A stretch of 64,000 nt of DNA from an uncultured Bdellovibrionales bacterium (GTDB taxonomy: Bacteria > Patescibacteriota > Minisyncoccia > Moranbacterales > UBA1568), in the NCBI GenBank assembly GCA_964384235.1, contig CAYLJX010000001.1, positions 241,709-305,708 on the forward strand, written 5' to 3'. Within the stretch, counting starts at the first letter, position 1; each line of letters starts with the position of its first letter. The notes under the pieces were generated by a model. It saw nothing but the letters and a program-made list of their open reading frames with translations. It made no database searches and was not told the origin of the DNA. The position numbers were made by a program, and so were the translations under genes. Of this stretch, positions 3,868 through 54,371 are shown one piece after another.

Positions 3868-3872
3868 CGGGG

Positions 3873-3978
3873 ATGTAGCATGTATCTTGTATCAAGTATC
3901 ACGTATGGCCGCGACACGTCGCGGTTTCTGTTTGCCTTAAATGGCACACTTGATACATAATACCTAATACGTACTACC
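3873..3978. repeat. Palindromic NNGTATC-heptamer element flanking the corA terminator
   Basis: Left arm atgtatcttgtatcaagtatcacgtatg. Right arm cacttgatacataatacctaatacgtac. Each arm is about 4 tandem heptamers, and the arms are mutually inverted around the terminator hairpin. Confidence 0.6.
3906..3932 (+). terminator. Intrinsic terminator after corA
   Basis: Hairpin ccgcgac-ac-gtcgcgg followed by tttctgtttg. Confidence 0.6.
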
Positions 3979-3987
3979 TCAAACGCT

Positions 3988-11064: not shown

Positions 11065-11333
11065 ATCAGATTGATCTGTCTCCGTACCCGGGCGATCTCA
11101 CCTTCAAGGACGGTGATCTGCCTGGAAAGATCCTGGTCCGCCCGCTCCTTGGCGTCGATATCGAGTTTGAGCCGGGACATCTCATTCTTGATCCCTCGAA
11201 GATCGGTGACGATCGCCTCGCGCTTCCCTTCGAGACGTTTCTTATCGCTTTGAAGGATGAGCAGTTCGCTTTCCAGGCGACGACTCCTGGCCTTCTTTTC
11301 GGAACTATCGTCATTCATGTCGGAGAAAGTCAT
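11061..11333 (-). CDS. Hypothetical coiled-coil protein (90 aa)
   Basis: Heptad-rich charged sequence (LESELLILQSDKKRLEGKREAIVTDLRGIKNEMSRLKLDIDAKE). Sits in an operon after the FtsA-like gene and the large membrane protein. Confidence 0.4.
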   Translation of the reverse strand: MTFSDMNDDSSEKKARSRRLESELLILQSDKKRLEGKREAIVTDLRGIKNEMSRLKLDIDAKERADQDLSRQITVLEGEIARVRRQINLI

Positions 11334-14670: not shown

Positions 14671-14705
14671 CAGTGAACAGCTAACAGGAAACAGTTAACA
14701 GTATT
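14671..14705 (-). repeat. Tandem heptamer array (CAGNNAA x5 on + strand) in the leader of the FtsA-like gene
   Basis: cagtgaa cagctaa caggaaa cagttaa cagtatt lies between the pfkB stop and the FtsA-like ATG. No Shine-Dalgarno sequence. Confidence 0.55.
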
Positions 14706-23939: not shown

Positions 23940-23943
23940 AGAT

Positions 23944-24037
23944 CAGTATTGTGTATTTTGTATCAGGTATCTTGTCAAAAAACCGGCCTCAGCCGGTTTT
24001 TTGTTTCTGCAATACGTAATACTTGATACAAGATACA
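23944..24037. repeat. Palindromic NNGTATC-heptamer element flanking the rpmA/pyrG convergent terminator
   Basis: Left arm tattgtgtattttgtatcaggtatcttgtc. Right arm aatacgtaatacttgatacaagatacatcatg, close to the reverse complement of the left arm. The terminator hairpin sits between the arms. Confidence 0.6.
23975..24005. terminator. Bidirectional intrinsic terminator (rpmA + / pyrG -)
   Basis: aaaaaa-accggc-ctca-gccggt-tttttg. Confidence 0.65.
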
Positions 24038-29486: not shown

Positions 29487-29520
29487 CCCCCCTGCCAACT
29501 GACAGAGTCTCCTTTGCCCC

Positions 29521-29560
29521 GAAGTCGTCACGCACGGCTCTCGGGGCGATCTTTTTTTAA
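29521..29560 (+). terminator. Intrinsic terminator after the 29112-29486 gene
   Basis: Hairpin ccccgaag...ctctcgggg followed by cgatcttttttt. Confidence 0.5.
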
Positions 29561-29750
29561 GAGCCTGTCTGTAAATCCTCTTTCGTCGCGAAATTTCAAA
29601 ATTTTGAGCGAAAGACGTGAAGGCGGAGGAGGGCTACTCGAAGGGTAACCCGACGAAACATGAACGTTTTGCAGCCAAAATTTTGAAATTGCAGCAGAAT
29701 ACGGGGTTTACAGACAGGCTCTCAAGAAGAAAAGCCCGCCACCGAATGTC
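29549..29750. repeat. ~200-nt long imperfect palindrome (MITE-like element or structured RNA)
   Basis: Outer arms ttaagagcctgtctgtaaa and tttacagacaggctctcaag. Inner arms gaaatttcaaaattttgagc and gccaaaattttgaaattgc. The central ~70 nt is non-palindromic. Confidence 0.4.
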
Positions 29751-29798
29751 GGCAACGGGCCTGTCGGAATGGGTTCCCAGGGAACTTGTCCCGGAACC

Positions 29799-30486: not shown

Positions 30487-30509
30487 TTACCAGCCGTTCG
30501 ATTCTCCTC
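30487..30509 (+). repeat. Inverted partial copy of the tRNA-Ala 3' end
   Basis: cgttcgattctcctcaggtc is the reverse complement of plus positions ~30565-30585 inside the tRNA gene, so it forms an inverted repeat around the terminator. Confidence 0.5.
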
Positions 30510-30520
30510 AGGTCATAAAT

Positions 30521-30554
30521 CAAAACTCCTCTGTAAAAAAACAGAGGAGTTTTG
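30521..30554. terminator. Strong stem-loop terminator downstream of tRNA-Ala
   Basis: Perfect hairpin aaaactcctctg-taaaaaaa-cagaggagtttt. Confidence 0.65.
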
Positions 30555-30563
30555 ATTTAGATG

Positions 30564-30634
30564 TGGACCTGAGGAGAATCGAACTCCTGCCTCTGCAATG
30601 CGAATGCAGCGTTGTACCACTTAACTACAGGCCC
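30564..30634 (-). tRNA. Candidate tRNA-Ala (CGC), folded by hand
   Basis: Proposed minus-strand sequence GGGCCTGTAGTTAAGTGGTACAACGCTGCATTCGCATTGCAGAGGCAGGAGTTCGATTCTCCTCAGGTCCA. Acceptor stem carries the G3:U70 alanine identity pair. Anticodon loop TTCGCAT gives anticodon CGC. T-arm GGAGTTCGATTCTCC. The D-stem could not be paired cleanly and the CCA end is not encoded, so this is a candidate that needs a tRNA search. Confidence 0.55.
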
Positions 30635-35408: not shown

Positions 35409-35419
35409 AGCATTGAAGG

Positions 35420-35461
35420 AATAGAGAATATTGAATAAAGAATGAGGAATAAGGAATAAGG
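35420..35461 (-). repeat. Six tandem heptamers (CYTYATT on mRNA; AATNNNG on + strand) filling the secA 5' leader
   Basis: Minus strand reads ccttatt ccttatt cctcatt ctttatt caatatt ctctatt and ends 8 nt before the secA ATG. No Shine-Dalgarno sequence. Confidence 0.65.
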
Positions 35462-35500
35462 AAAAAATCCCTTTCCTGGGCCGTTATATTTTATAGAATA

Positions 35501-35529
35501 CCAAGGAAAACGGCTCCAGTAAAGGAGCC
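35501..35529 (-). terminator. Intrinsic terminator after hpf
   Basis: Minus strand reads ggctcc-tttact-ggagcc-gttttcc. Confidence 0.55.
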
Positions 35530-35565
35530 GAATCATTATTCGATATTCAAGATTCCTTTCTCCAC

Positions 35566-35922
35566 TCAAAATCTCGCTGAGCCGTCGACCACCATCTTTT
35601 TCTTGATGGAACGCTGCCCACGGAGCTTGAGATCGCGATGCTTGTCTTTTTTCTTGTCGATCTGGGCCTCGAGCTCGTCGATGGCGATGTCGGTCGACCC
35701 TTCAATGCTTTCCGTCGTGTCTTCGGCACGGTAGAGGTTATGAGGCGTCTTGACCATGATTTCGACACGGAATTTCCCCTTTTTGTCCTTCTCGATCTCT
35801 ATCTCGAACTGCGAGACGGGATCGACGAGCTTCTCTATCCGTTCCAGGCGCTTGAGGATATAGTCCCGGGTACGTTCGTCGATATCCACACCTTGAAACA
35901 GGAAACGCGTGTTGGCGTTCAT
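35566..35922 (-). CDS. hpf: Ribosome hibernation promoting factor (HPF/RaiA family)
   Basis: 118 aa MNANTRFLFQGVDIDERTRDYILKRLERIEKL... with the beta-alpha-beta-beta-beta-alpha fold pattern of YfiA/HPF. Confidence 0.8.
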   Translation of the reverse strand: MNANTRFLFQGVDIDERTRDYILKRLERIEKLVDPVSQFEIEIEKDKKGKFRVEIMVKTPHNLYRAEDTTESIEGSTDIAIDELEAQIDKKKDKHRDLKLRGQRSIKKKMVVDGSARF

Positions 35923-40020: not shown

Positions 40021-41166
40021 TCAGGAGAGCTGTTCGAAATGCGATAGAAGAAGCTCGGCACTCTTGTCCCAGGAGAAGGCTTGGAGGCGCGATTTCCCGC
40101 GCGTCAGACACATCTTCCTCGCTTCCTCATCAGTGCACACACTATACAATATATTTTCACAAGCGACAAGGTTCTTCGGATCGAAGTACAGCGCCGCATC
40201 CTCTCCCGTCTCCCGCAGGCTCGGGATATCCGATGCCGCCACCGGCACCCCGACCGCAAAAGCCTCCAGAAGCGGAATCCCGAATCCCTCGTACAGACTG
40301 GGGAACACGAACCCCCTGGAGAGCTTCATGAGCACGGCCAAGTCCTTCTGATCGACAAACCCAGGAAAGATGACGTCTTCCCTGATTTGAGTACGATCGA
40401 TCACGTCGTCGAGACGCGTATCGGCGTGGTGTCCCTGACGGTTGCCGACGAGCACGAGCTTCATCCCGGGCACGCGTTCCTTGAGACGCGCGAAAGCCTC
40501 GATCAAAAACGGGATGTTCTTGCGCGGCTGAAGCGTACCGACGGAGAGAAGAAACTCTTTGGGAAGCGAATACTTCTCACGGACCATGGCGTTTCTTTCC
40601 GTATCATCACTTTCCACGACGAAATCTTCTCCCAGGGCATTAGGCACGACCGCGATCTTCTCCGGATCAGTCCCGTAATACTTCACGATCTCGTCCTTGG
40701 TGAACCGTGACGGCGCGATGACAAGCGCTGCCCGACGAAGCGAGGGCGGGATGAGGAGATCAAGGAAAAATCTGTCCTTCCGGCCGATGAGCTCCGGATA
40801 CGCGGCAAAAGACACATCGTGGATATGTGTCGCGACTTTGGTTCGTCTCGGGACAAAGAATGGCAGTATGTACTGCGTGTGAAAAACATCGACATGGTGA
40901 CGGAACAGAAACCACGGCAGCGTCACGAAGTTCCACACGAAACGGTTGCGCCCGCGAAGCGACACGATCTCCACGTTTTCCTGTCCGACACAACCGAGCG
41001 TACCGTAGAGTGCGGCGACCTTTTCCGGCTCCCGTTCGTTAGTCATGAGGAGGTAGCGGTTCTTCTTGTCGAGCCGCAGGAGCGCCTTGGTCAGGTTGAA
41101 CACCACCGCCTCATCGCCGGTGCGCTTTTTGCCAAGCAGTCTGATGTCGATCGCAAAGGTTTTCAT
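40021..41166 (-). CDS. Glycosyltransferase family 1 (GT4-type)
   Basis: C-terminal EGFGIPLLEAFAVGVPV motif and the RKN motif. 381 aa. Confidence 0.8.
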   Translation of the reverse strand: MKTFAIDIRLLGKKRTGDEAVVFNLTKALLRLDKKNRYLLMTNEREPEKVAALYGTLGCVGQENVEIVSLRGRNRFVWNFVTLPWFLFRHHVDVFHTQYILPFFVPRRTKVATHIHDVSFAAYPELIGRKDRFFLDLLIPPSLRRAALVIAPSRFTKDEIVKYYGTDPEKIAVVPNALGEDFVVESDDTERNAMVREKYSLPKEFLLSVGTLQPRKNIPFLIEAFARLKERVPGMKLVLVGNRQGHHADTRLDDVIDRTQIREDVIFPGFVDQKDLAVLMKLSRGFVFPSLYEGFGIPLLEAFAVGVPVAASDIPSLRETGEDAALYFDPKNLVACENILYSVCTDEEARKMCLTRGKSRLQAFSWDKSAELLLSHFEQLS

Positions 41167-42752
41167 GACGGATTTCTATCATTTTCCATCATCAACGTTC
41201 CCAAAGCAAGAAACAGGAAAAAGAATCCCAGAAGGATACCGGAGTTGAACATGTTGAACACCGTGATGCCTGCCCAGACGGAAGCGACGAAAAGAAAGAG
41301 CGGCCGCATGTTTTCCTCTCCGCGAAACCATCCGTACACCGCCGCCGCGATCACCGAGAACCAGAAAACGACAAACGCGACCAGTCCGATGAGTCCGCTC
41401 CCGAGCCAAATCTCCAAGAACATATTGCTCGCGTTGAGTCCCGCACCGCGCTCATCAGAACCAAGGAAAGCCGCCGCGCTCCCCCATCCGATACCCAGGA
41501 GAGGGTGTTCCCGTATCAGGCCCCAGACTTTTCCATAGATTTCCTTGCGGATCGAGACGTTGGGGTCGTCACGGACGATTTCCTTCACGAAGTGCCCGGC
41601 AACTTTCTCCGCCTCGATATCCTCCAGATCGATGTGTCGGCAACCGAAAGCGGCAAGCTCCGAGACGTCACCGATCTTTTCCGGGAGCGCGACATCCTGC
41701 CCGCACGAGACCGTGATTCTCTGCAGTCCTGACCCGACACTCTGCACGCGGTTCCCAAGTTGGAACGACGTGAGGTGCAGACCCCATACCAACCCGAGTG
41801 CGATGACAAACGAAACAGCGACCGTCCCGACAAACACCATTCCCTCCCTGATCCGCCGCGAGAGGAGAAGTAATCCAGCAAACGTTACGGCACCGATGAC
41901 CGCCCCCAGCCACGCGCTCCTCGCCACGGTGATGATGAGAACGACAAACGAGAGGATAAGCATGACAGCCATGAGCCATGCCTTCGCATCCCGCATTTTC
42001 CGCATGATACATGATACATGATACATGATACTTCCCTGTTCTTTGGAGAAGAACGTCTGATACGCCAAAACATACATCACACCCAAGACTACGATAACGA
42101 AAAGTCCCAGCCAATCCGCCTCGCTGAACGTGGCGTTCGGCCGTCCGGCCATCACCTGAAAGCTTTCCTGCCCCGCGAGGAACCGCACATTCTGCCACAG
42201 GGCATAGCCAAAAACGACGAGCGAAGAACCGAGAAAAAACGGCAGCACCTGCCTGACATCCTCATACGATCGCAGATAGAGACGGGAGAGGAGATAGATC
42301 AGTCCGAACGACGAAAGTACCAGCGCCTGCTTGAACGCGAGCGCCAGGGACGGAGCGTTGAGACTCGCGAAGAACGCCCCGATCGGCACGAACGCGAGAC
42401 AAAAATCGAACCAGCGGAGACGAAGCGGCGCAAGCGACAGTCTCCCCATGACCAGGCGCACCGCGAGAGCGAGCGAGAGGAGCACGGCGATCCACTGATA
42501 CGGCCGAAGCATCATCCCGAAACCTTCCGGAAGGAGATTGACCGTCTCATAAGGAAGCATCCCGATGAGAAAGAGAAATACCCACCCCGGCCGATAGAGA
42601 GCAAAAAGAAAAGCAACGAATGAAAAGAAAAGAAAATTGACCGGATCAAGCGGCACCACACCAGTGTTTGCGAGCACGATCAACACGACGCCAAGGAAGA
42701 TATTCCCCAGGACAAGCATCAGTTTGTTCTGACTCCACCCGAAAAAATTCAT
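41163..42752 (-). CDS. O-antigen ligase/polymerase-like membrane protein (Wzy_C domain)
   Basis: About 12 TM helices and a periplasmic loop with the Wzy_C pattern (AGLNASNMFLEIWLGSGLIGL). Start overlaps the upstream GT4 stop (ATGA). Contains an in-frame (ATGATAC)x4 tract. Confidence 0.65.
   Translation of the reverse strand: MNFFGWSQNKLMLVLGNIFLGVVLIVLANTGVVPLDPVNFLFFSFVAFLFALYRPGWVFLFLIGMLPYETVNLLPEGFGMMLRPYQWIAVLLSLALAVRLVMGRLSLAPLRLRWFDFCLAFVPIGAFFASLNAPSLALAFKQALVLSSFGLIYLLSRLYLRSYEDVRQVLPFFLGSSLVVFGYALWQNVRFLAGQESFQVMAGRPNATFSEADWLGLFVIVVLGVMYVLAYQTFFSKEQGSIMYHVSCIMRKMRDAKAWLMAVMLILSFVVLIITVARSAWLGAVIGAVTFAGLLLLSRRIREGMVFVGTVAVSFVIALGLVWGLHLTSFQLGNRVQSVGSGLQRITVSCGQDVALPEKIGDVSELAAFGCRHIDLEDIEAEKVAGHFVKEIVRDDPNVSIRKEIYGKVWGLIREHPLLGIGWGSAAAFLGSDERGAGLNASNMFLEIWLGSGLIGLVAFVVFWFSVIAAAVYGWFRGEENMRPLFLFVASVWAGITVFNMFNSGILLGFFFLFLALGTLMMENDRNPS
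42004..42031 (-). repeat. Perfect (ATGATAC)x4 heptamer tract inside the Wzy-like CDS
   Basis: Encodes the peptide ...IMYHVSCIM.... The 28-nt tract sits in frame in an otherwise intact ORF. Changing the copy number by one unit would shift the frame. Confidence 0.7.
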
Positions 42753-43978
42753 ATCGTCATTTCCGAAAAAATCTTCTCCACGAACTTGTCCCAACTGAAT
42801 TGTACAATCTGGGCATGAGATCGGGCAACGAGCCTCTCCCGGAGTGCTTCATCACCGAGCAACCGCTCCATCCCCATGACGATCGAATCAGTATCGTGAG
42901 GATCGCAGTACTGTACCGCTTCACCCCCCACTTCCGGAAGTGATGAATTGTTCGAAGCAAGTACCGGCGTTCCCTTACACATCGCCTCCAAGACCGGCAG
43001 ACCGAACCCCTCGTAAAGCGACGGATAGACAAAGAACACCGCGCCGCGATACAGCGCCAGCAGATCTTCTTCCGGGACGAACCCCAGAAGCTTCACTTTT
43101 TCTTCCAATCCTAATTCCTTCACCAACCCCTCTACATCAGTCGCCAACTTATTTTCTTTCGAAAAAATTTTTCCAGAAATAACAAGAGGTGGGATATCGG
43201 CATTTTTTTGTATCTTGTATCTTGTATCTTGTATCTTTGCTTGAAGCATTGCATATGCTTCAAGCAGTGTCTTGGCATTCTTCCTCACTTCCAATCCCCC
43301 ACCATGATAAATGTAGCCCTGTTCGAGGCCGTACTTTTTCAAAACCGTGTCCACTGTCTCATCAGAGATAACTTCACGGAAACGCGGACTGACATCCGGA
43401 TACGCCACAACGATCCGTTCTTCCGAAAGACCGAGATGCTTCACAAGGTCTTGCTTCGTGGCTTCGGACACCGCGACGATCTGGTCTGCACTTCGGATGC
43501 CCCCCTCCACTGCCTTCCAGTGAAGCCTCTGTGACATCTTGCCTAAATATTCCGGAAACAATTTTGGGATGACATCATGTACGACCATTACATGTTTCAG
43601 CTTGTAGCTGGTAGCTGGTAGCTTGTAGCTTTCAAAAGAAGTTGAAGACTGGTAAAGAGAAAGGAAGACGTCACAGCCGTCGGCAGCGGCGCGCTTGGCG
43701 AGCTCGCGCTCCCAGAGCCACTTCCTCGGCACATCATCACGCTTCCACCACTTCGGGAGAAAACTCTTCACTTCAAAGTTCGCTGGAAGATCAATATTGA
43801 TGGGTTCTTCGGTATACAAAATGTATCTTGTATCTTGTATTTTGTATTTTGTATTCCCTTGATACGTAATACCGGATACATGATACTCGGTTAACTTTTG
43901 TAAAAAGTTAGCCGTTACTTGCCCGATACCGGTTCCGGGCTTTCTCAAAAATGACGCGTTGATACCTATTTTTTTCAT
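42749..43978 (-). CDS. Glycosyltransferase family 1 (GT4-type) carrying three in-frame heptamer-repeat insertions
   Basis: N-terminus MKKIGINASFLRKPGTGIGQVTANF and C-terminus EGFGLPVLEAMCKGTPV. Repeat-encoded segments are YHVSGITYQGNTKYKIQDTRYILY, YKLPATSYKLK and KIQDTRYKIQ. Confidence 0.75.
   Translation of the reverse strand: MKKIGINASFLRKPGTGIGQVTANFLQKLTEYHVSGITYQGNTKYKIQDTRYILYTEEPINIDLPANFEVKSFLPKWWKRDDVPRKWLWERELAKRAAADGCDVFLSLYQSSTSFESYKLPATSYKLKHVMVVHDVIPKLFPEYLGKMSQRLHWKAVEGGIRSADQIVAVSEATKQDLVKHLGLSEERIVVAYPDVSPRFREVISDETVDTVLKKYGLEQGYIYHGGGLEVRKNAKTLLEAYAMLQAKIQDTRYKIQKNADIPPLVISGKIFSKENKLATDVEGLVKELGLEEKVKLLGFVPEEDLLALYRGAVFFVYPSLYEGFGLPVLEAMCKGTPVLASNNSSLPEVGGEAVQYCDPHDTDSIVMGMERLLGDEALRERLVARSHAQIVQFSWDKFVEKIFSEMTI
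43209..43236 (-). repeat. (TGTATCT)x4 tract inside the GT4 CDS
   Basis: Four perfect tandem heptamers that encode KIQDTRYKIQ. Confidence 0.7.
43603..43630 (-). repeat. (KGTAGCT)x4 tract inside the GT4 CDS
   Basis: tgtagct ggtagct ggtagct tgtagct, encoding YKLPATSYKL. Confidence 0.65.
43822..43856 (-). repeat. (TGTATYT)x5 tract inside the GT4 CDS, near the N-terminus
   Basis: tgtatct tgtatct tgtattt tgtattt tgtattc, followed by gatacgtaataccggatacatgatac. Confidence 0.65.
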
Positions 43979-46691: not shown

Positions 46692-46720
46692 TTGCTAATT
46701 TTCGCTCTTTTTCGTACAAT
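46692..46720 (+). promoter_or_regulatory. Candidate sigma70 promoter for the + strand glycan operon (TTGCTA-17-TACAAT)
   Basis: AT-rich island upstream of the dehydrogenase gene; tttgctaattttcgctctttttcgtacaat. Confidence 0.45.
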
Positions 46721-46747: not shown

Positions 46748-48037
46748 ATGACACAATCAACTCAGAAGACGGTATGCGTGGTCGGTCTCGGGTATGTGGG
46801 TTTGCCTTTGGCTGTCCGTGCCCGGGAACGCGGCTATCGCGTCATCGGCTTCGATACGAACGAGGAAAAGATCACCCTCATCAACGAGGGCAAGAGCCCG
46901 ATCATGGAAGAGTTCCTGGAAACGCGCATAGGACAGTTCCACCCGGAAGCGACCAGCGACCCGGCCATGATCAAGGAAGCCGACATCGTCCTCATCTGCG
47001 TCCCCACTCCGGTCGACGAGATGCGCAATCCCGACTACGGTCCGGTGGAAGACGCCTCGCGTCTCATCGCTTCCAATCTCAAGAAAGGCGCCCTCGTCGT
47101 CCTCGAATCGACCGTCAACCCTGGCGTAAGCGAAGAGATCGTCGCCCCTATCTTCGAAGCGGCCGGTCATACGGTCAGTACCGATGTCTACCTCGCCCAC
47201 TGCCCGGAGCGCATCAATCCCGGTGACAAGAAGTGGAACGTGACCAACATCCCGCGCGTCCTCGGTTCTTTCGACGAAAAGGGGCTCTCGATCGGATTGG
47301 AATTCTACCGCTCCATCGTCGATGCCGAAATCCGCCCGATGAAATCCATCCGCGAAGCCGAAGCGGTCAAGATCCTCGAAAACTCCTTCCGTAACGTGAA
47401 CATCGCTTTCGTCAATGAGCTGGCGCGCTCCTTCGCAAGGCTCGATATCGACGTCAAGGACGTCATCGACGGTGCTGCTACCAAACCGTTTGCCTTCATG
47501 GCCCACTATCCGTCCTGCGGTATCGGCGGCCACTGCATCCCGGTCGATCCGTACTATCTCGTCGAATACGCGAGGAAGACCTCCGACTTCGACCACAAAT
47601 TCCTCTCGCTCGCCCTCGAGATCAACCGCGACATGCCGGTCTATACCGTCGAACTCCTGCAGGATGCGCTGAACGAAGTGAGGCTCCCGATGAACGGCAC
47701 GAAAGTCGCCGTACTCGGTATTGCCTACAAGGCGAACGTCGACGACTCGCGCGAATCGCCGGCGTTCGAGATCATCAAGCATTTGAAAAAGCATCACTGC
47801 CAGGTAGAGACATACGACCCGTACATCCTCAGGGAATCCACCATGAAGAACCTCGATGAGATCCTCGCTGCCTGCGACGCCGCCGTCCTCGTCACCAACC
47901 ACAAGGATTTCGTGGAGAGCGTCACTCCTGAGCTTCTCAAGAAGCACGATATCAAGGTCATCATCGACGGCAAGAACTGCCTCGACAAAGAAGCTTTCAA
48001 ACAGTCAGGGATCGTCTATCACGGGATAGGACGGTGA
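46748..48037 (+). CDS. UDP-sugar (UDP-GlcNAc/UDP-ManNAc) 6-dehydrogenase family
   Basis: 429 aa. N-terminal Rossmann fold (VCVVGLGYVGLPLA), catalytic Cys region and C-terminal domain motif AYKANVDDSRESPA. Confidence 0.85.
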   Translation: MTQSTQKTVCVVGLGYVGLPLAVRARERGYRVIGFDTNEEKITLINEGKSPIMEEFLETRIGQFHPEATSDPAMIKEADIVLICVPTPVDEMRNPDYGPVEDASRLIASNLKKGALVVLESTVNPGVSEEIVAPIFEAAGHTVSTDVYLAHCPERINPGDKKWNVTNIPRVLGSFDEKGLSIGLEFYRSIVDAEIRPMKSIREAEAVKILENSFRNVNIAFVNELARSFARLDIDVKDVIDGAATKPFAFMAHYPSCGIGGHCIPVDPYYLVEYARKTSDFDHKFLSLALEINRDMPVYTVELLQDALNEVRLPMNGTKVAVLGIAYKANVDDSRESPAFEIIKHLKKHHCQVETYDPYILRESTMKNLDEILAACDAAVLVTNHKDFVESVTPELLKKHDIKVIIDGKNCLDKEAFKQSGIVYHGIGR

Positions 48038-48039
48038 TT

Positions 48040-48130
48040 CAGTTGTCCAGCTAACGGGTTAAAAAGTTAACGGGTTAAAGAATACCGATCGGAACTCGTT
48101 AACCCGTGAACCCGTTAACGGAAAAACAGA
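48040..48130. repeat. GTTAAC-containing palindromic element (8-nt periodic arms)
   Basis: Left arm gttaacgg gttaaaaa gttaacgg gttaaag. Right arm cgttaacc cgtgaacc cgttaacg. A second copy follows the small gene at 48381-48472. Confidence 0.55.
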
Positions 48131-48134
48131 ACGT

Positions 48135-48380
48135 ATGTTCGGCATCATCAAGCTCATCATCTGGATCGCGGGGGTGGCGGCTATCGCCTATTTCGCGTTG
48201 CCCTACTTCGGCTATGAGGTGAACCTCAACTATTGGAACGAGCGCAAGGCGGCGTGTCAGGAGAAACTCCAGCAGTGCCAAAAGGATCTCATCAAGACCG
48301 GTCTCGACGGCGCCAAAGAGAAGTGCAATATCCAGTGCGTCGACCCGCAACTGCTGATACGGAAATCCGAAGACAATTAA
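48135..48380 (+). CDS. Hypothetical small membrane protein (81 aa) with 4 Cys in the C-terminal half
   Basis: N-terminal TM helix. Flanked on both sides by copies of the GTTAAC element. Confidence 0.35.
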   Translation: MFGIIKLIIWIAGVAAIAYFALPYFGYEVNLNYWNERKAACQEKLQQCQKDLIKTGLDGAKEKCNIQCVDPQLLIRKSEDN

Positions 48381-48472
48381 TCAGTTAACGAGTTAAAAAG
48401 TTAACGAGTTCGGATACGGAATCCCGGTTTCAACCCGTTAACCCGTGAACCTTTTAACCGTATAACAGAAAA
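48381..48472. repeat. Second copy of the GTTAAC-containing palindromic element
   Basis: cagttaacgagttaaaaagttaacgagtt ... aacccgttaacccgtgaaccttttaaccg. Confidence 0.55.
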
Positions 48473-48475
48473 AAT

Positions 48476-49444
48476 ATGCGCCTCATCGTCAACCTGCCGG
48501 CTTACAATGAAGAAGAGAAGCTCGGAGAAACCATCCACAGGATCCCCCGCCAGTTCGACGGCATCGACGAGGTGCTCGTCCAGGTGATCGATGACGGATC
48601 GCAGGACCGCACCATGGAAGTCGCGAAACAAGCGGGGGCCGATTTTGTCTACACGAACGGCGTCAACCGCGGCATCGGCAAGACGTTCCGTCACGCCGCC
48701 TTCCGTGCGCTCGAGAACGGCGCCGACATCATGGTCAATATCGACGCTGACGGCCAGTTCGATCCACAGGATATTTCCAAGCTCATCGCCCCGATCCTCG
48801 CAAACGAAGTCGACATGGTGAGCGCCGACCGATTCGATCACCTCAAGGCCAAGAACATCCCCTGGGTCAAGGACACGCTGAACCGCCTGGCTGCCAAGCT
48901 CATCGGCAGTTTCATGAACGTCAATATCAAGGACCTCACCTGTGGATTCCGCGCCTATTCTCGCGAGACGCTTCTCAAGCTCAACCTCCCCGGCGACTTC
49001 ACCTACACGCAGGAAACCATCATCGACGCCCTCGGCAAGGATCTCAAGATCCTCTGGGTCCCCGTCGAGGTCACCTATTTCGCCGAGCGCAAGTCGCGCG
49101 TGGTGCGAAGCGTCTGGAAGTACGTCTCTAACAGCTTCCGTCTGATCCTCAAGACCGTCCGCGACGTGCGACCCATGAAGTTCTTCGGCGTGCCGGGACT
49201 CGCCCTCGTCACGCTCGGGGTCACCGTCTTCATCGTCTTCCTCTTTCTCTACTTCCAGGAGTTCAAGATCACCCCGTATCGCAACTACCTCTGGTTTGCG
49301 TCCGTCACCTTCCTCATCGGGCTGCAGTTCCTCATCTTCGCCTTCATCGCCGACATGATCAAGTCGAGCCGCAAGCTGACGGAAGACATGATGTACCAGT
49401 TCAAGAAAGACAAATACAAAAAACAGTCAACAATTAACAGTTAA
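48476..49444 (+). CDS. Glycosyltransferase family 2 with C-terminal TM helices (GtrB/ArnC-like polyprenyl-phosphate glycosyltransferase)
   Basis: GT-A domain (VIDDGSQDRT, DADGQ) plus two C-terminal TM helices, the architecture of bactoprenol-phosphate sugar transferases. Confidence 0.8.
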   Translation: MRLIVNLPAYNEEEKLGETIHRIPRQFDGIDEVLVQVIDDGSQDRTMEVAKQAGADFVYTNGVNRGIGKTFRHAAFRALENGADIMVNIDADGQFDPQDISKLIAPILANEVDMVSADRFDHLKAKNIPWVKDTLNRLAAKLIGSFMNVNIKDLTCGFRAYSRETLLKLNLPGDFTYTQETIIDALGKDLKILWVPVEVTYFAERKSRVVRSVWKYVSNSFRLILKTVRDVRPMKFFGVPGLALVTLGVTVFIVFLFLYFQEFKITPYRNYLWFASVTFLIGLQFLIFAFIADMIKSSRKLTEDMMYQFKKDKYKKQSTINS

Positions 49445-49461
49445 CTTCGGGTCCACGCCTT

Positions 49462-49492
49462 TGTTCTCTGTTTACTGTTAGCTGTTAACTGT
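49462..49492 (+). repeat. Tandem heptamers (CTGTTNN x4) immediately upstream of the GT4 ATG
   Basis: ctgttta ctgttag ctgttaa ctgttat then ATG. No Shine-Dalgarno sequence. The same motif family occurs in the FtsA-like leader. Confidence 0.55.
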
Positions 49493-49493
49493 T

Positions 49494-50582
49494 ATGAAGA
49501 TTCTTTTCATATCGAGAGCGTATCCCCCTGTGGTAGGTGGCATCGAGAACCAGAACTACGAGCTCTCGGTGTGGCTCCCGAAACTCGCAGAGACCAGGAC
49601 GATCGCCAATACGCGCGGGAAACCTTTTCTCCCTTTTTTTACCCCTTACGCCCTTTTGAGGGCCATTTTTCTCGTGCCGCGTTACGACGTGCTTCTTCTC
49701 GGTGACGGCGTCCTCGGCATCGTCGGCTGGTTCGTGAAATTTTTCTATCCGAAGAAAACCGTCGTCTCGGTCGTCCACGGTCTCGATCTCACGTTCACGA
49801 GCGGTATTTACCAACGCTTCTGGGTACGGAAATTCCTGCCCGCGCTCGACGGACTGATAGCCGTCGGAAATGAGACCATCCGTCAGGGTGTCGCCCGCGG
49901 CATCCCGGAAGACAAATTCTTCTTCGTCCCTAACGGCGTGGACACGGAGAAATATTTCGGCAGACACGATCGCAAGGAACTGGAAAAGATTCTCGGCCTC
50001 CCGCTCGAAGGCAAACGTGTCCTCCTCACATCCGGCCGCCTCGCGAAACGAAAGGGTGTCGCCTGGTTCATCCGCTCTGTCATGCCGAAACTTCCGGAGA
50101 ACATCCTCTACGTCGTCGCCGGTGACGGGGCCGACCGGGAAAACATCAATCGAGCGGTGCAGGAAACCGGCCTCGCCTCGCGCGTGAAACTCCTCGGCTA
50201 TGTTTCGGACGAAGTACGAAACGTCCTCCTCAACACCAGCGACCTCTTCATCCAGCCCAATATCCGGGTCAAGGGGGACATGGAAGGCTTCGGTATCTCC
50301 GTCATCGAGGCCGCTTCATGCGAACTCCCCGTCATCGCCTCGCGCCTCGAAGGTCTCCAGGACGCCATCCAGGACGGCGAGAACGGCCTCCTGGTAGAAA
50401 CGGAAGATGCCGACGGATATGTCTCCGCTATCACAGGACTCCTCGATGATCTCGCCCGTCTCAGTGACTTCAAATCAGAAGTCCGACGCTACACAGTGGA
50501 ACATTTCTCCTGGGAACACATAGCCTCGCGCTACATCGCCGTGCTGGAAAAAATCGCTGAAATGGGGCATAATGGGAAGTAA
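49494..50582 (+). CDS. Glycosyltransferase family 1 (GT4-type)
   Basis: 362 aa. EGFGISVIEAASCELPVIAS motif and N-terminal GT-B domain. Confidence 0.8.
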   Translation: MKILFISRAYPPVVGGIENQNYELSVWLPKLAETRTIANTRGKPFLPFFTPYALLRAIFLVPRYDVLLLGDGVLGIVGWFVKFFYPKKTVVSVVHGLDLTFTSGIYQRFWVRKFLPALDGLIAVGNETIRQGVARGIPEDKFFFVPNGVDTEKYFGRHDRKELEKILGLPLEGKRVLLTSGRLAKRKGVAWFIRSVMPKLPENILYVVAGDGADRENINRAVQETGLASRVKLLGYVSDEVRNVLLNTSDLFIQPNIRVKGDMEGFGISVIEAASCELPVIASRLEGLQDAIQDGENGLLVETEDADGYVSAITGLLDDLARLSDFKSEVRRYTVEHFSWEHIASRYIAVLEKIAEMGHNGK

Positions 50583-52486
50583 TGACCTCCCTTTTGTATC
50601 CAATCTTGTTTCTTCTGGCGCTGCCCCTGGTACTCTTTCTGCCGGGGTGGGCATTCGTCGCTTTCCTCGAACGGAAAGGTGATATTTTTACCGCACTGGA
50701 ACGGGCCGTACTCGCCGTGGCCATGAGCCTCGTATCCGTGGATGCGATCTTTCTCATCCTCGATCGTCTGCATGTCCCGCTTCGCACCGCGACGATTCTT
50801 CCTGTCATTGTCATATTCAGCCTCATATTCTTTTTTCTTGGAAAGAAGAAAATCCCGCAGGAAAAGACCGGACCGACGAAAACGGTTCCCATCGCTTTCC
50901 TCGTCATTCTCGCCGCGATCGTCGCCATCAAGACGGTCTATTTCCTCCCCTCCGTCATCCCGAACTCGACCGACCTCGGCCACCACATGTACTGGGTCAA
51001 GCAGCTCGTGACCGAACAGTCGATCCCGGAATACGCCGAACGTGAGATCATCCAGAAAGACGGGAAATATGTCATCGGTGAACCCGAGCCGATCTCCGAT
51101 TTCATCGTCGGCGAACACCTCGTCCTCTCGGCCATCCAGATGCTCTCCGGCATGGAGTTCGACTCTGTCTATCCGTCGCTCACGCTCTTTTTCATCCACC
51201 TTTTCACGGCCATCGCTCTCTACGTCCTGGCGCTCCGTCTCTTCGCCGGAACGAAATACCAGGAAAAAATCGCCCTCACGGCCCTTCTCCTCATCGGCCT
51301 CCTCTATTCCTTCTCACCGCCGGAGATGAAGTACATCCTCGGAGGCGTAGTCGGAAACACGTTCGGGAACCTCCTCATCCCTGCGATCTTTCTCCTCCTT
51401 GTCATCGCCCTCCGCCTGCGACGCCCAGACCTTCTCGCCACGGCTGTCCTCCTCATGTTCGGCCTCGCCTACACGCACCACCTCTCGACCCTCCTCTTTG
51501 CCATCGTCCTTGTCTCGGTCGCTTTCTTTCTCATTCTCCTCAACCGACGCTTCGTCCGAGACAACATCCTCCCTCTCGTTTTTTCAAGAAACGTCCTTTC
51601 GGTCTTCACGCTCTGTCTCATCTTTTTCTTTCTTGTCTGGACGCCTTCCTACATCCGAAACAGCGCCGTGAACACCGTCATCGGAGCGCCCACTGCGAGC
51701 GAACACCTCGGCTTCTCCTTTTCCCAGCTCAAATTCGCCGTCGGTGAACCCCGCATGATGTTCGGTCTCCTCGGTATCATTCTCCTTCTCGCCTCCAAGA
51801 AACTGCGGACTTCCGAGACGGCCGCCCTCCTTCTCGGCTGGACCCTGCCGCTCATCCTCCTCGTCATGGAACCGGATCTCACCCGCATCGATCTCCCTTC
51901 GGGTCGGGTCGCCAATTATGCCATCTTTCCCCTCGTGCTCCTCGCCTCCTTCGCCCTGGTGTGGGTCCTGGAAAAGATGAAGAAGCAGTCTTTTCTCCCG
52001 GTCTTTCTCAGGAATGGTGTCTTCTTCCTGCTCTTCCTCCTCATCATGCACAACGGCTTTTTCGACAACAGCTTCTATCAGAGAGGTAAAAACGAAGGCG
52101 CCCGAAAAATGCTCTCGCTTCGGGATGCCTCGCAGTACCTCGGAGAGACGCTTCCCCCGGAAGCCGCCGCCGTCCATGACCACATCAACATCCTCGGTGA
52201 TTCCTGGATCAAACTTTCCTTCATGCGCGATTACAACTTCCCCTTTTACCGCGCCAATCTCTTCCGATATGAGCGCATCACCGACAAGCAGGAGAAGTGC
52301 ACGCTCTACATGATCAGCCAGCCGAACTCCGCCGACGCTACCAAATGTCTCCAAGACCTCGATGTAAAAGCCATCCTCGTGAATGAGTCCATAGACGGGC
52401 CGCAGTTCCGGCACTTCCGCAATTTCTCCCTCACGTATAATGGCCCGTATTATTCGACGTACTGGCACGCTCCTCTGAAAAAGTAA
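50582..52486 (+). CDS. Polytopic membrane protein, possible GT-C-type glycosyltransferase or polymerase
   Basis: 634 aa with about 13 N-terminal TM helices and a C-terminal soluble domain. No DE motif. Start overlaps the upstream stop (TAATG). Confidence 0.5.
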   Translation: MTSLLYPILFLLALPLVLFLPGWAFVAFLERKGDIFTALERAVLAVAMSLVSVDAIFLILDRLHVPLRTATILPVIVIFSLIFFFLGKKKIPQEKTGPTKTVPIAFLVILAAIVAIKTVYFLPSVIPNSTDLGHHMYWVKQLVTEQSIPEYAEREIIQKDGKYVIGEPEPISDFIVGEHLVLSAIQMLSGMEFDSVYPSLTLFFIHLFTAIALYVLALRLFAGTKYQEKIALTALLLIGLLYSFSPPEMKYILGGVVGNTFGNLLIPAIFLLLVIALRLRRPDLLATAVLLMFGLAYTHHLSTLLFAIVLVSVAFFLILLNRRFVRDNILPLVFSRNVLSVFTLCLIFFFLVWTPSYIRNSAVNTVIGAPTASEHLGFSFSQLKFAVGEPRMMFGLLGIILLLASKKLRTSETAALLLGWTLPLILLVMEPDLTRIDLPSGRVANYAIFPLVLLASFALVWVLEKMKKQSFLPVFLRNGVFFLLFLLIMHNGFFDNSFYQRGKNEGARKMLSLRDASQYLGETLPPEAAAVHDHINILGDSWIKLSFMRDYNFPFYRANLFRYERITDKQEKCTLYMISQPNSADATKCLQDLDVKAILVNESIDGPQFRHFRNFSLTYNGPYYSTYWHAPLKK

Positions 52487-52488
52487 CT

Positions 52489-52869
52489 ATGCAGACAATG
52501 ACTGAAAAAACGACTCTTTGGATCACGGGAGGTATCATCCTTCTCTCCTTCGCCGTGCTCCTCATCGCCGGGGAACGCGCGGTGCGGACACCCTCTGACG
52601 GACTCTGGGCGGTCTCCTTTTCCGATCCGGAAAGCCGGGAGTTTTCCTTCGATGTGAAAAACTTCGCCGGCCCTGACGCACATTTCCGCTGGTCTCTCCT
52701 TCAGGAAGGCAGGAAAGAAGAGGAAGAGATCGTCTCCGGCGCCTCTGACGTGGTAAGCAAAGCATCACTTCGCATCTCTCCAGAAACCGGGAAACTCTCC
52801 GGCAAAGTGATCATCCGCGTGACTGACGAAGCCGGCGTCACGAGAGAGCTCTACAAGATACTTCCTTAA
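52489..52869 (+). CDS. Hypothetical membrane-anchored small protein (126 aa)
   Basis: N-terminal TM helix. Lies directly after the polytopic protein. Confidence 0.35.
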   Translation: MQTMTEKTTLWITGGIILLSFAVLLIAGERAVRTPSDGLWAVSFSDPESREFSFDVKNFAGPDAHFRWSLLQEGRKEEEEIVSGASDVVSKASLRISPETGKLSGKVIIRVTDEAGVTRELYKILP

Positions 52870-52879
52870 CCCTGCCTCT

Positions 52880-54328
52880 ATGCCTACTCTTGCCCGTTCG
52901 ATTTTCTGGCTTTTCTTCGCGGAATTCGCCTTCTACATCTCCGGCTACCTCGTCCAGATGGGAGCCGGCCGGATCCTGGGACCAGCCGACTACGGCCGCT
53001 TCGGTCTGGTCGTCACGCTCACCCTCCTCGTCGCCAATCTCATCGGGAACGGCGTCCCCATCGCCATGAGCAAGTACCTGAGCGAAGCCGCCACCGTGAA
53101 ACCAGAACTCCTCGCTTCCATCAAGAGAAGAGGAGCACTCATCCAGGCACTCTTCATGGGGGCAGTGACCGTCCTGTTCTTCCTCTTCGCTCCGGGATTC
53201 TCACGCCTCATCGGCGATCCCGCGCTCGCGCCGTTCTTCACGCTCTCCGCGTTCATCATTCCCTGTTTCGCCGCGGACGCCTTTTACTTCTACTACTATT
53301 CCGGCACCAAACGCTTCAATATCCAGTCCTTCCTCAAGATCTCACGCGCTGTCATGCGCATCACCATCATCCTCGGGCTCGCCTACGCCTTCCAGCTCAA
53401 GGGCATCATCGCCGGATACATCTTCGTGCCGCTCTCCGTCTTCCTCATCGCCCTCGCCATCGATATCTTCTCCCGGAAGAATACTGAGACGAAACCCGTC
53501 GAAGCCTCCTTCCCGATCCGAAAGATCGCCCTCCTCGCCCTGCCTGTCACCGTCTTCCTCGTCCTCTCCGAGACCTTCATCTCGTTCGACATCTACCTCC
53601 TCAAATACTTCTTTCATGACGATAAGCTCGCCGGCTTCTACAACGCGGCCCTGAACGTCGCCCGCATCCCCTCCTACCTCTTCTACGCCCTCACCCTCAT
53701 CCTCCTTCCCGTGATCGCCGAATCCTCCTCGACGAACGACGTCAAGAAAATGAGCGGGATGGTGACTTTGGCGCTCCGTTTCATGCTTCTTCTCTCCTTT
53801 CCTTTCATCGTCTTTTCGACGGTTTATCCCGAGACCGTCATCGGCCTCCTCTTCGGCCACGCCTTCACTTCGGCCGCCTCGTTCCTGCCTCTCCTCTCGG
53901 TCGGCACCAGTCTCATCGCTATCTTTTATGTCCTCGCTTTCGCCTACAAAGGGATCGATCGCATCGGTATTCCGCTTCTCTTCATGGGAGCGGGGATTTT
54001 CCTTAACGTCCTCCTCGACCTTTCCCTCTTCCCTCTCATCCGGGCCGATGCCGTGCCGCTCGCCAAGGCGCTCTCCGGTCTCGTCCTCCTGCCGTTTTTT
54101 CTTGTCTCATTGAGGCGGACTTTCCAGGCCACCGTCAGTCTCGGATCATTCTCGCGGATGCTCCTCGCCGCCGCCATCCTCTTCCTCGCGGCGCGCTTCT
54201 TCGACGACTCACTCACGAGCCTCCTCATCATCGCCCCGCTTCTCACGGCCGGGTACGTCGCCATCCTCTTCTTTCTCGGAGAGATCAAAAAAGAGGACTT
54301 CGCAGTCCTCAGTCATTCTTCCAAATGA
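52880..54328 (+). CDS. Polysaccharide biosynthesis flippase (Wzx/MOP superfamily)
   Basis: 482 aa with about 14 TM helices and the N-terminal pattern of Polysacc_synt proteins. Confidence 0.75.
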   Translation: MPTLARSIFWLFFAEFAFYISGYLVQMGAGRILGPADYGRFGLVVTLTLLVANLIGNGVPIAMSKYLSEAATVKPELLASIKRRGALIQALFMGAVTVLFFLFAPGFSRLIGDPALAPFFTLSAFIIPCFAADAFYFYYYSGTKRFNIQSFLKISRAVMRITIILGLAYAFQLKGIIAGYIFVPLSVFLIALAIDIFSRKNTETKPVEASFPIRKIALLALPVTVFLVLSETFISFDIYLLKYFFHDDKLAGFYNAALNVARIPSYLFYALTLILLPVIAESSSTNDVKKMSGMVTLALRFMLLLSFPFIVFSTVYPETVIGLLFGHAFTSAASFLPLLSVGTSLIAIFYVLAFAYKGIDRIGIPLLFMGAGIFLNVLLDLSLFPLIRADAVPLAKALSGLVLLPFFLVSLRRTFQATVSLGSFSRMLLAAAILFLAARFFDDSLTSLLIIAPLLTAGYVAILFFLGEIKKEDFAVLSHSSK

Positions 54329-54371
54329 CGGAATTCGATCCGAATTTACCGTCATTGATCCTGAAACAAGT

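Follow-up and report, generated by a model that had tools for sequence, protein, structure and literature searches.

In the 64-kb window analysed here, that is, the whole stretch of 64,000 nucleotides from contig CAYLJX010000001.1 of an uncultured bacterium of the Moranbacterales, three hairpin-forming elements built of 7- to 8-nt tandem repeats lie at gene junctions of a plus-strand sugar-chain operon which, by Pfam annotation of the window, runs from ugd through a flippase gene. The genes concerned are ugd (46748-48037, UDP-glucose/GDP-mannose dehydrogenase family; Pfam PF03721, PF00984, PF03720), a gene for an 81-aa membrane protein with an N-terminal transmembrane helix and four conserved cysteines (48135-48380), a GT2 glycosyltransferase gene (48476-49444, PF00535, stop codon at 49442-49444) and a GT4 glycosyltransferase gene (49494-50582, PF00534 and PF13439), all on the plus strand. 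Element 1 (48038-48134) fills the whole spacer between ugd and the 81-aa gene from stop to start (intergenic region 1, IGR1), element 2 (48381-48475) fills the spacer between the 81-aa and GT2 genes (IGR2), and element 3 (49422-49493) lies at the GT2/GT4 junction (IGR3). The original prediction, made from the letters alone, had placed two repeat elements around the 81-aa open reading frame (ORF) and related repeats before the GT4 gene; two elements of roughly 95 nt do fill the spacers on both sides of this ORF, and every element coincides exactly with a junction between genes of the same direction.

The left arm of element 1 (48050-48081) consists of four octamers, GCTAACGG GTTAAAAA GTTAACGG GTTAAAGA, which approximate the reverse complement of a 27-nt module, AACTCGTTAACCCGTGAACCCGTTAAC, with the middle unit swapped for GTTAAAAA. 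A loop at 48082-48092, which holds the 8-bp palindrome CCGATCGG (48085-48092), separates it from the right arm (48093-48119), AACTCGTT AACCCGTG AACCCGTT AAC, an exact copy of the 27-nt module; the basal 3' strand and leader, GGAAAAACAGAACGT (48120-48134), follows, pairs with 48038-48049 in the predicted fold and carries no Shine-Dalgarno (SD) motif. Element 2 is a second copy of this doublet, with left arm GTTAACGA GTTAAAAA GTTAACGA GTT (48384-48410), loop (48411-48431), right arm AACCCGTT AACCCGTG AACCTTTT AACCGTAT AAC (48432-48466) and leader (48467-48475). Ungapped alignment of IGR1 with IGR2 gives 76% identity over 59 nt and 90% identity over 29 nt. The period of 8 nt that had been claimed for the arms was recovered by Tandem Repeats Finder (TRF) in both spacers, whose repeat consists of about three 8-nt units, AACYCGTK, while element 3 has a period of 7 nt and 3.9 copies. 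Here the left arm, AACAGTC AACAATT AACAGTT AAC (49422-49445), is formed from the last 23 nt of the GT2 gene including its stop codon, the loop spans 49446-49469, and the right arm, GTTTACT GTTAGCT GTTAACT GTT (49470-49493), abuts the GT4 ATG at 49494; the repeat amounts to about 3.5 units of 7 nt, AACAGTY / RCTGTT. The inverted pair and heptamers predicted before the GT4 gene were thus found as 7-nt arms holding the perfect 11-nt pair TAACAGTTAAC/GTTAACTGTTA. The perfect 16-bp palindrome AACCCGTTAACGGGTT attributed to each copy is absent, the best match in the window being 13 of 16 in a search with up to three mismatches; no perfect inverted pair is longer than GTTAACGGGTT/AACCCGTTAAC, whose halves are separated by 32 nt. 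In each spacer two module copies face each other across a loop of about 20 nt to give an imperfect stem-loop of about 30 pairs, and the reading of each of the three spacers as two inverted copies of one very short tandem-repeat module is well supported. Apart from the palindrome, the structural description in the original prediction was essentially right, while its regulatory and cassette readings proved mostly wrong, as set out below.

All three spacers fold better than expected. Minimum free energies were -31.7 kcal/mol (z -3.6) for IGR1, -24.7 kcal/mol (z -3.4) for IGR2 and -22.2 kcal/mol (z -3.35) for 49415-49500 around element 3, each against 200 dinucleotide shuffles, none of which (0/200) folded as well as its spacer. 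Each stem is long and irregular, contains 22-32 pairs and is interrupted by symmetric internal loops; the IGR1 stem has 32 pairs, begins 0 nt after the stop codon and ends 3 nt before the ATG. We considered whether a GTTAAC-rich or low-complexity background could have produced these elements by chance. GTTAAC occurs 10 times in the window, only modestly above the 6.2 expected, and 17 of 100 shuffles reach 10. However, eight of the 10 sites fall inside the three spacers, within 1.45 kb, so the background is not GTTAAC-rich; moreover, no shuffle matches the fold of any spacer, and the conservation across strains and species and the array counts described below are likewise contrary to chance. 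Together these observations refute a chance origin, which we regard as next to impossible. Elsewhere in the window GTTAAC is present only at 43890 and, within a heptamer array, at 14694, compared with an expectation of about six, and this HpaI-type palindrome could be avoided in the rest of the window.

A consensus scan detected no terminator-like site (a G+C-rich stem followed by a T-run) in 48038-48134, 48381-48475 or 49445-49493, which gives no support to the suggestion that the elements are attenuators of the classical kind, and no promoter consensus in the three spacers; the sequences right after the stems are GGAAAAACAG, AGAAAAAAT and ATGAAG. A search of the elements against the covariance models of Rfam 15, at gathering and E-value thresholds, gave only chance-level matches (E 0.65 and 0.97), with scores far short of the gathering cut-offs, and Rfam over the whole window returned tRNA-Ala alone.

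Conservation of the elements was assessed against related loci. One of these, L001 (97.9% identical), proved uninformative as a selection test, as its divergence is patchy, reaching up to 10% per 250 nt in some places, with change-free stretches between, and most 250-nt bins having no change. This pattern suggests frequent recombination between strains. L001 also carries, at 11152-11187, a 36-nt insertion, CCGGACGCGATCCGGAATCTCTGATAGTTTTTCCGA, relative to window position 54357 in the convergent flippase/PMT spacer. Because the L001 divergence comes in such recombination-like patches, we used L187 (with L188 representing one strain), which is evenly diverged from the window across 47719-48730. 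Over 820 coding nt, L187 differs at 61 positions, 48 of them third codon positions (17.6% of third positions), while IGR1 and IGR2 show no change in 192 nt; under a Poisson model, so unchanged a stretch has a probability of 6e-7 if sites change at the mean coding rate, and of 2e-15 if they change at the third-position rate. Judged from this comparison, both 8-mer elements are under purifying selection. Over longer distances IGR1 is 76% identical to its counterpart in L049, and the elements of L042, L048 and L051 show 79-88% identity, with third positions saturated at 44-61% and unrelated elements aligning at about 62% as a baseline; the rate at which the elements diverge is thus about as low as that of first and second codon positions. 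In the alignment of IGR1, IGR2 and L049 conservation is seen in the arms but not in the loops, and the unit core GTTAACG is invariant in all three copies. In both families RNAalifold retained the hairpin; each family has one compensatory pair, and several one-sided changes still pair, for example as G-U. We noticed no difference in array copy number among Logan and ENA contigs of the species, L001-L008 and L187/L188, nor the copy-number variation by slippage that is a trait of cyanobacterial short tandemly repeated repetitive (STRR) sequences; the module length is near-constant, about 27 nt across contexts.

The 81-aa protein has no Pfam match, and we found 82 homologues of it in Moranbacteria; in the alignment C41 and C48 are invariant and C64 and C68 are conserved in at least 90% of sequences. 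Most of 58 related genomes have this gene between ugd and that for GT2, as a rule with no hairpin element, and in some relatives a second small membrane ORF is inserted after it, e.g. at L049 4294-4509. We located the ugd/small-ORF junction in 50 genomes. In 27 of them the spacer measures only 2-35 nt (median 8), and in the other 23 it measures 45-142 nt, being at least 89 nt where a long hairpin is present; about 14-16 of these 23 carry a hairpin with arms of 7- to 9-nt period. Among 17 junction spacers folding with at least 20 pairs, 1-34 nt (median 16) are left unpaired, with one outlier. The repeat unit at this junction varies by lineage, being of AACA type in L014, L019, L025 and L189, AAGTC/GACTT in L042, L048 and L051, TTTCTAA/TTAGAAA in L062 and others elsewhere. 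Among the relatives a GTTAAC-type element occupies the junction only in L049 (53% protein identity; 500-kb contig CAVURJ010000002.1), where it aligns over its full length with IGR1 and IGR2 at 79% mean column identity; the GT2/GT4 junction of L049 also bears a heptamer hairpin, TTCAAAA/TTTTGAA. A hairpin of about 90 nt is present in L014 and absent from L013 and L017 despite flanks that are about 100% identical. Since L189 carries the L014 element, L013 and L017 most likely lost the hairpin recently.

These junction data refute two of the functions first suggested for the elements. The idea of a small insertion cassette was right in that the elements have the look of inserted DNA and wrong in making the 81-aa ORF their cargo, for the ORF lies 3' of ugd in 50 genomes, 27 of them with nothing more than the short spacer, and synteny over the 58 genomes rules the cassette out. 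An operator array for a cluster-specific regulator fares no better: the unit differs between the spacers, orthologous junctions of the relatives carry hairpins of unrelated units or none, and the 27-nt module recurs in unrelated genes and organisms. More generally, the arrays might be bound as duplex DNA, as operators of a regulator or sites of a nucleoid protein, which was the main idea of the original prediction and has a parallel in the TTTTGAT heptad repeats of the Vibrio cholerae ctxAB promoter that recruit transcriptional regulators (10.1101/2021.05.14.444153). It would account for conservation of the sequence itself beyond pairing, as in the invariant core GTTAACG, for loops and leaders that are unchanged between strains, and for the recurrence of the same unit in many organisms. 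Against this, the only DNA-binding regulator or transposase among 60 window ORFs scanned against Pfam, nearly all of the about 64 called genes, was HrcA (1398-2138), with no regulator in the cluster or within +/-10 kb; the 8-bp spacing would put successive sites on different faces of the helix; a different factor would be needed for each spacer and lineage; and the module is tolerated inside coding sequences and has a strand-specific orientation. We therefore consider duplex binding sites a very improbable explanation.

The module itself is not confined to this operon. The exact 27-mer AACTCGTTAACCCGTGAACCCGTTAAC was found in four unrelated contexts (L074, L080, L088 and L151), and the fetched loci hold 44 copies with at most three mismatches; left arms are the reverse complement of the module, that of L049 with two mismatches. 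A metagenome scan for 16 nt of the module returned at least 120 loci, many of them chance 14-mers, and among the matches listed about 37 of 125 contexts are octamer arrays, some with inverted partners. In long open frames of low-GC contigs the module encodes xLTGSRVNEL in one orientation and NSLTRxPVN in the other, and copies with at most two mismatches lie inside frames of 150-1000 codons at 31-42% GC in L067, L070, L074/L088, L094, L101, L104, L146, L151, L175 and L186. In the RecR proteins P0204, P0205, P0222 and P0317 and those of L103 (4068-4094) and L080 (8116-8142), the module, encoding LTGSRVN, lies in frame in either of two variable loops, and P0222 carries it in both. The RecR orthologues are 80-92% identical and named Roizmanbacteria or Patescibacteria, which places L103 and L080 in these groups; RecR was used for this purpose instead of the neighbour protein of L171 (25% GC), a type I restriction S subunit that was uninformative for taxonomy. 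In RecR orthologues without the module the corresponding loops look like decayed arrays of 8-nt period. Identical copies in unrelated spacers and, in frame, inside genes give good support to the view that the module acts as intrusive DNA. IGR1 and IGR2 share the middle unit GTTAAAAA and have loops that are about 65% similar, which suggests that the whole doublet was copied once within this lineage.

Such behaviour raises the question of whether the elements are simply selfish mini-repeats without a host function, like Rickettsia palindromic elements or REPINs (paired, inverted repetitive extragenic palindromic, REP, sequences). The doublet would then be the replicative unit, and its conservation would stem from selection at the level of the element, for recognition by an enzyme, or from recent spread. 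The exact 27-mer in unrelated contexts and in frame in many ORFs, its presence in two different loops of orthologous RecR proteins, the variable occupancy between the near-identical genomes L014 and L013/L017, and the absence of an element from the ugd/small-ORF junction of most relatives all agree with this, and the lineage-specific GTTAAAAA and similar loops of IGR1 and IGR2 are expected if the whole doublet is copied; REPINs are likewise more conserved as doublets (PMC3116915). Several observations speak to the contrary. We found no transposase and no REP-associated tyrosine transposase (RAYT) among the Pfam-scanned ORFs, no target-site duplication, IGR1, IGR2 and the L014 insertion all being free of flanking direct repeats, and just two to three copies in the 64 kb; orientation with respect to the gene that follows is not random; and the orthologous copy in L049 has been retained while synonymous sites became saturated, which argues for long-term retention and not turnover. 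Pure selfishness is in our view unlikely, though it has to be taken seriously.

The elements belong to a wider class. TRF was run on the window and 58 related loci (478 kb) together with a shuffled control, and detected 70 arrays of period 7, compared with 2 in the shuffles, and 13 arrays of period 8, compared with 3. After merging of overlapping TRF rows, intergenic DNA, which makes up 8% of the 478 kb, was found to hold 33 of 68 heptamer and nine of 10 octamer arrays, an enrichment of about 12-fold. An inverted partner within 160 nt accompanies 25 of 51 intergenic arrays as opposed to 3 of 44 coding arrays. It is well supported that the elements belong to a lineage-wide class of arrays of 7- to 8-nt period in Moranbacteria and other bacteria of the Candidate Phyla Radiation (CPR). 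Within the window a few units are reused: CTGTTAR at 14671-14702 and 49468-49494, the GTTAAC octamer at IGR1 and IGR2, and a GTATC-type unit at 752-880, 3868-3987, 23940-24037, 43208-43237 and 43822-43855. The CTGTTAR array at 14671-14702 is single and lies directly 5' of an ftsA-like gene, and in the 35409-35637 spacer a GAATAAA array starting at 35416 has its inverted partner downstream. The hairpins at 752-880, 3868-3987 and 23940-24037 have GTATCNN/NNGATAC heptamer arrays as arms. The first separates the minus-strand genes grpE and dnaK; the plus-strand ORF 1-828, which has a Pfam NAD-GH match, we take to be the known spurious frame antisense to dnaK, which starts at 741 on the minus strand. 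The arms at 3868-3987 flank a terminator hairpin with a T-run at corA/cysS, and those at 23940-24037 a bidirectional terminator with a T-run between the convergent rpmA and pyrG genes; both look as if palindrome arms had grown outward from the terminator.

Heptamer arrays also occur in coding sequence of the window, in the minus-strand ORFs 41163-42794 (Wzy-like) and 42749-43978 (GT4), and are perfect or near-perfect: CATGATA x4 (42003-42031), TTGTATC x4.3 (43208-43237), AGCTKGT x4.7 (43599-43631) and TGTATYT x4.9 (43822-43855). As three heptamers make 21 nt, the reading frame is kept, and the arrays of the GT4 gene at 42749-43978 encode inserts of KIQDTRY type, e.g. KIQDTRYKIQ. The three arrays of this gene are covered by L001 and unchanged there, 42003-42031 lying outside L001.

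Taking module and arrays together, it is possible, on balance somewhat doubtful, that the 27-nt module and its sibling heptamer modules represent an unrecognised group of intrusive mini-repeats of CPR/Patescibacteria, which would be copied sequence-specifically, would settle as doublets at operon junctions and as 9-residue in-frame loop inserts (LTGSRVNEL or NSLTRxPVN), and whose doublets the host would retain, under purifying selection, for intercistronic control.

As to what such control might be, we tentatively propose, with a little less than an even chance of being right, that the intrusive doublets are kept as intercistronic mRNA stem-loops which hold stop and start codons together and mask a start region devoid of an SD motif. 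The elements would be transcribed within the operon mRNA from ugd to the flippase gene, and each stem spans from the upstream stop codon to within 0-12 nt of the next AUG, with the 5' arm of IGR3 supplied by the end of the GT2 coding sequence. As the stem spans stop to start, folding would keep both effectively adjacent despite an insert of about 95 nt, and would bury the downstream initiation region, which is pyrimidine-rich and lacks an SD motif. A ribosome terminating upstream could then melt the base of the stem, or in IGR3 unwind the entire 5' arm, and expose the start, so that translation of the 81-aa protein, GT2 and GT4 would each be coupled to the preceding cistron, and purifying selection would maintain the complementarity of the arms. 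Start-proximal arrays are indeed pyrimidine-rich (20 of 27, against 33% of other leaders), and SD motifs, which precede 7-11% of 473 genes, precede none of the 27 array-preceded genes. The 1-34 nt that the junction hairpins leave unpaired are also comparable with the spacers of 2-35 nt in hairpin-less relatives.

A number of observations weigh against coupling. Antisense RNA folds more stably than sense RNA in 12 of 14 stop-to-start hairpins (IGR1 -36.7 against -31.7 kcal/mol, IGR2 -31.0 against -24.7 kcal/mol), so that the mismatches on the mRNA strand are A.C and not G.U, unlike what selection for mRNA pairing alone would leave. Strand compositional skew may explain this, and the comparison of sense and antisense energies was accordingly set aside as an ambiguous test of selection at the mRNA level. 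Covariation is weak: with three sequences per family there are 0 or 1 two-sided pair changes, and in the covariation alignment, which is 91.7% paired, no change occurs on both sides of a pair. As loops and leaders are also invariant between strains, pairing alone cannot account for the constraint. More than half of the relatives have no hairpin at the junction, and it is therefore not essential; a palindrome inserted in a short spacer would give the stop-to-start geometry trivially; and similar heptamer arms flank the ordinary terminators at 3868-3987 and 23940-24037, where coupling is impossible. We infer the coupling function from geometry and conservation, and in view of these caveats RNA processing or stability remains, like pure selfishness, a serious rival.

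Intercistronic RNase III sites of phage T7 and the REP sequences of Escherichia coli operons are processing and stability elements, and the hairpins described here could likewise be RNase III sites, barriers to 3'-exonucleases or polymerase pause sites, so that steady-state levels would differ among ugd, the small protein and the transferases. Long, irregular stems of 22-32 pairs with symmetric internal loops would suit this, as would arms that stay conserved over long evolutionary distances while loops vary, and the grpE hairpin, which starts right at the stop codon and ends 54 nt before the dnaK start, fits 3'-end protection better than coupling; transcript stability is also among the roles proposed for STRR hairpins (PMC2670836). 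On the other hand, the sense RNA is usually the less stable strand, no T-run follows the stems, which are therefore not intrinsic terminators, and the frequent ending of the 3' arm 0-13 nt from the AUG is left unexplained. We thus rate processing, like selfishness without a host role, as an unlikely explanation.

The remainder of the operon comprises an ORF with a weak DUF1616 match below the Pfam cut-off (50582-52486), a 126-aa ORF (52489-52869) and the flippase gene (52880-54328), all on the plus strand, and a consensus scan placed a sigma-70-like promoter at 46692-46720 in the divergent region before ugd. Two further structures in the window were noticed. The 282-nt spacer 29487-29768 is predicted to form a very stable long hairpin (-125.8 kcal/mol, z -9.5, arms of about 90 nt); its flanking ORFs have no Pfam match and it has no Rfam match, and it may represent a structured RNA or else a large palindromic element. 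At 30491-30589, adjoining tRNA-Ala(CGC) at 30563-30634, there are two inverted repeats, of which one is perfect over 19 bp, TAAATCAAAACTCCTCTGT / ACAGAGGAGTTTTGATTTA, and the other is a pair of 24 nt.

The repeat phenomenon is broader than the finding from which it was followed up, as it takes in hairpin doublets at junctions and in-frame protein inserts. CPR genomes are very small and streamlined, and conserved hairpins of about 95 nt at their tight operon junctions imply that gene expression in these SD-poor bacteria may rely on intercistronic RNA structure. The role of short heptamer and octamer arrays such as STRR and TAACTGA repeats has been in question since 1990, and the present arrays offer clear evidence of purifying selection together with a testable geometry. 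The in-frame module in different CPR proteins suggests an unrecognised source of variation in protein loops and regulation, and in practice calls for caution when genes are called or CPR metagenomes assembled. A full-text literature search found no description of such dispersed repeats or arrays in CPR/Patescibacteria.

Among known systems, several resemble the elements in part. The Rickettsia palindromic elements, which Ogata et al. are said to have described in 2000, are reportedly small repeats inserted in frame in genes as well as between genes; they are said to measure 100-150 bp and to be palindromic as a whole, whereas the module here has 27 nt (9 codons) and occurs in CPR bacteria. Miniature inverted-repeat transposable elements differ in that no target-site duplication was found here and the loops are unrelated between the window and L049, and intrinsic terminators in that the three spacers have no G+C-rich stem with a T-run. 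REPINs share with the elements two inverted, conserved copies of about 25 nt with a variable spacer that form a hairpin (PMC3116915), an extragenic position, and a doublet that looks like the copied unit (IGR1 to IGR2), with conserved ends. However, each half is here a tandem repeat and not a palindromic REP, its only self-complementarity being the 6-bp GTTAAC; and the module has no GTAG or CGTC tag and also occurs singly and in frame within genes. REPINs are mobilised by RAYT transposases; among the 60 ORFs scanned in the 64-kb window no RAYT gene was seen.

TAACTGA repeats of marine Beggiatoaceae, cyanobacteria and Bacteroidetes (MacGregor 2015, PMC4679880) form short arrays of 2-6 units directly 5' of start codons without an SD motif, in a biased orientation, with some copies in ORFs and a scattered phylogenetic distribution, and the right-arm unit of IGR3, TAACTGT, is one base off TAACTGA. 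The Beggiatoaceae sets are nevertheless direct in 169 cases against one indirect, while about half of the intergenic arrays described here are inverted hairpin pairs. According to Mrazek 2007, as quoted in PMC4679880 and PMC4692102, it is heptamers that show the strongest over-representation of all long simple-sequence repeats in bacteria, and polymerase slippage is held responsible.

The closest match is provided by the cyanobacterial STRR heptamer hairpins, of which the one between hupS and hupL has been proposed to act in transcript stability or translational coupling (PMC2670836). Both consist of tandem 7-nt units (in IGR3), are mostly intergenic, reuse a few favoured units at many loci and have facing arrays that can form a hairpin between two co-transcribed genes, and the Nostoc units ttgtcagttgtcag and ttgttagttgttag (PMC2408588) resemble the IGR3 unit CTGTTAR. 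They differ in that the host is here a small-genome CPR bacterium and not a filamentous cyanobacterium, that the units of IGR1 and IGR2 have 8 nt, that the arrays are short (about three units) and of near-constant length, and that the arrays described here bear the demonstrated mark of purifying selection.

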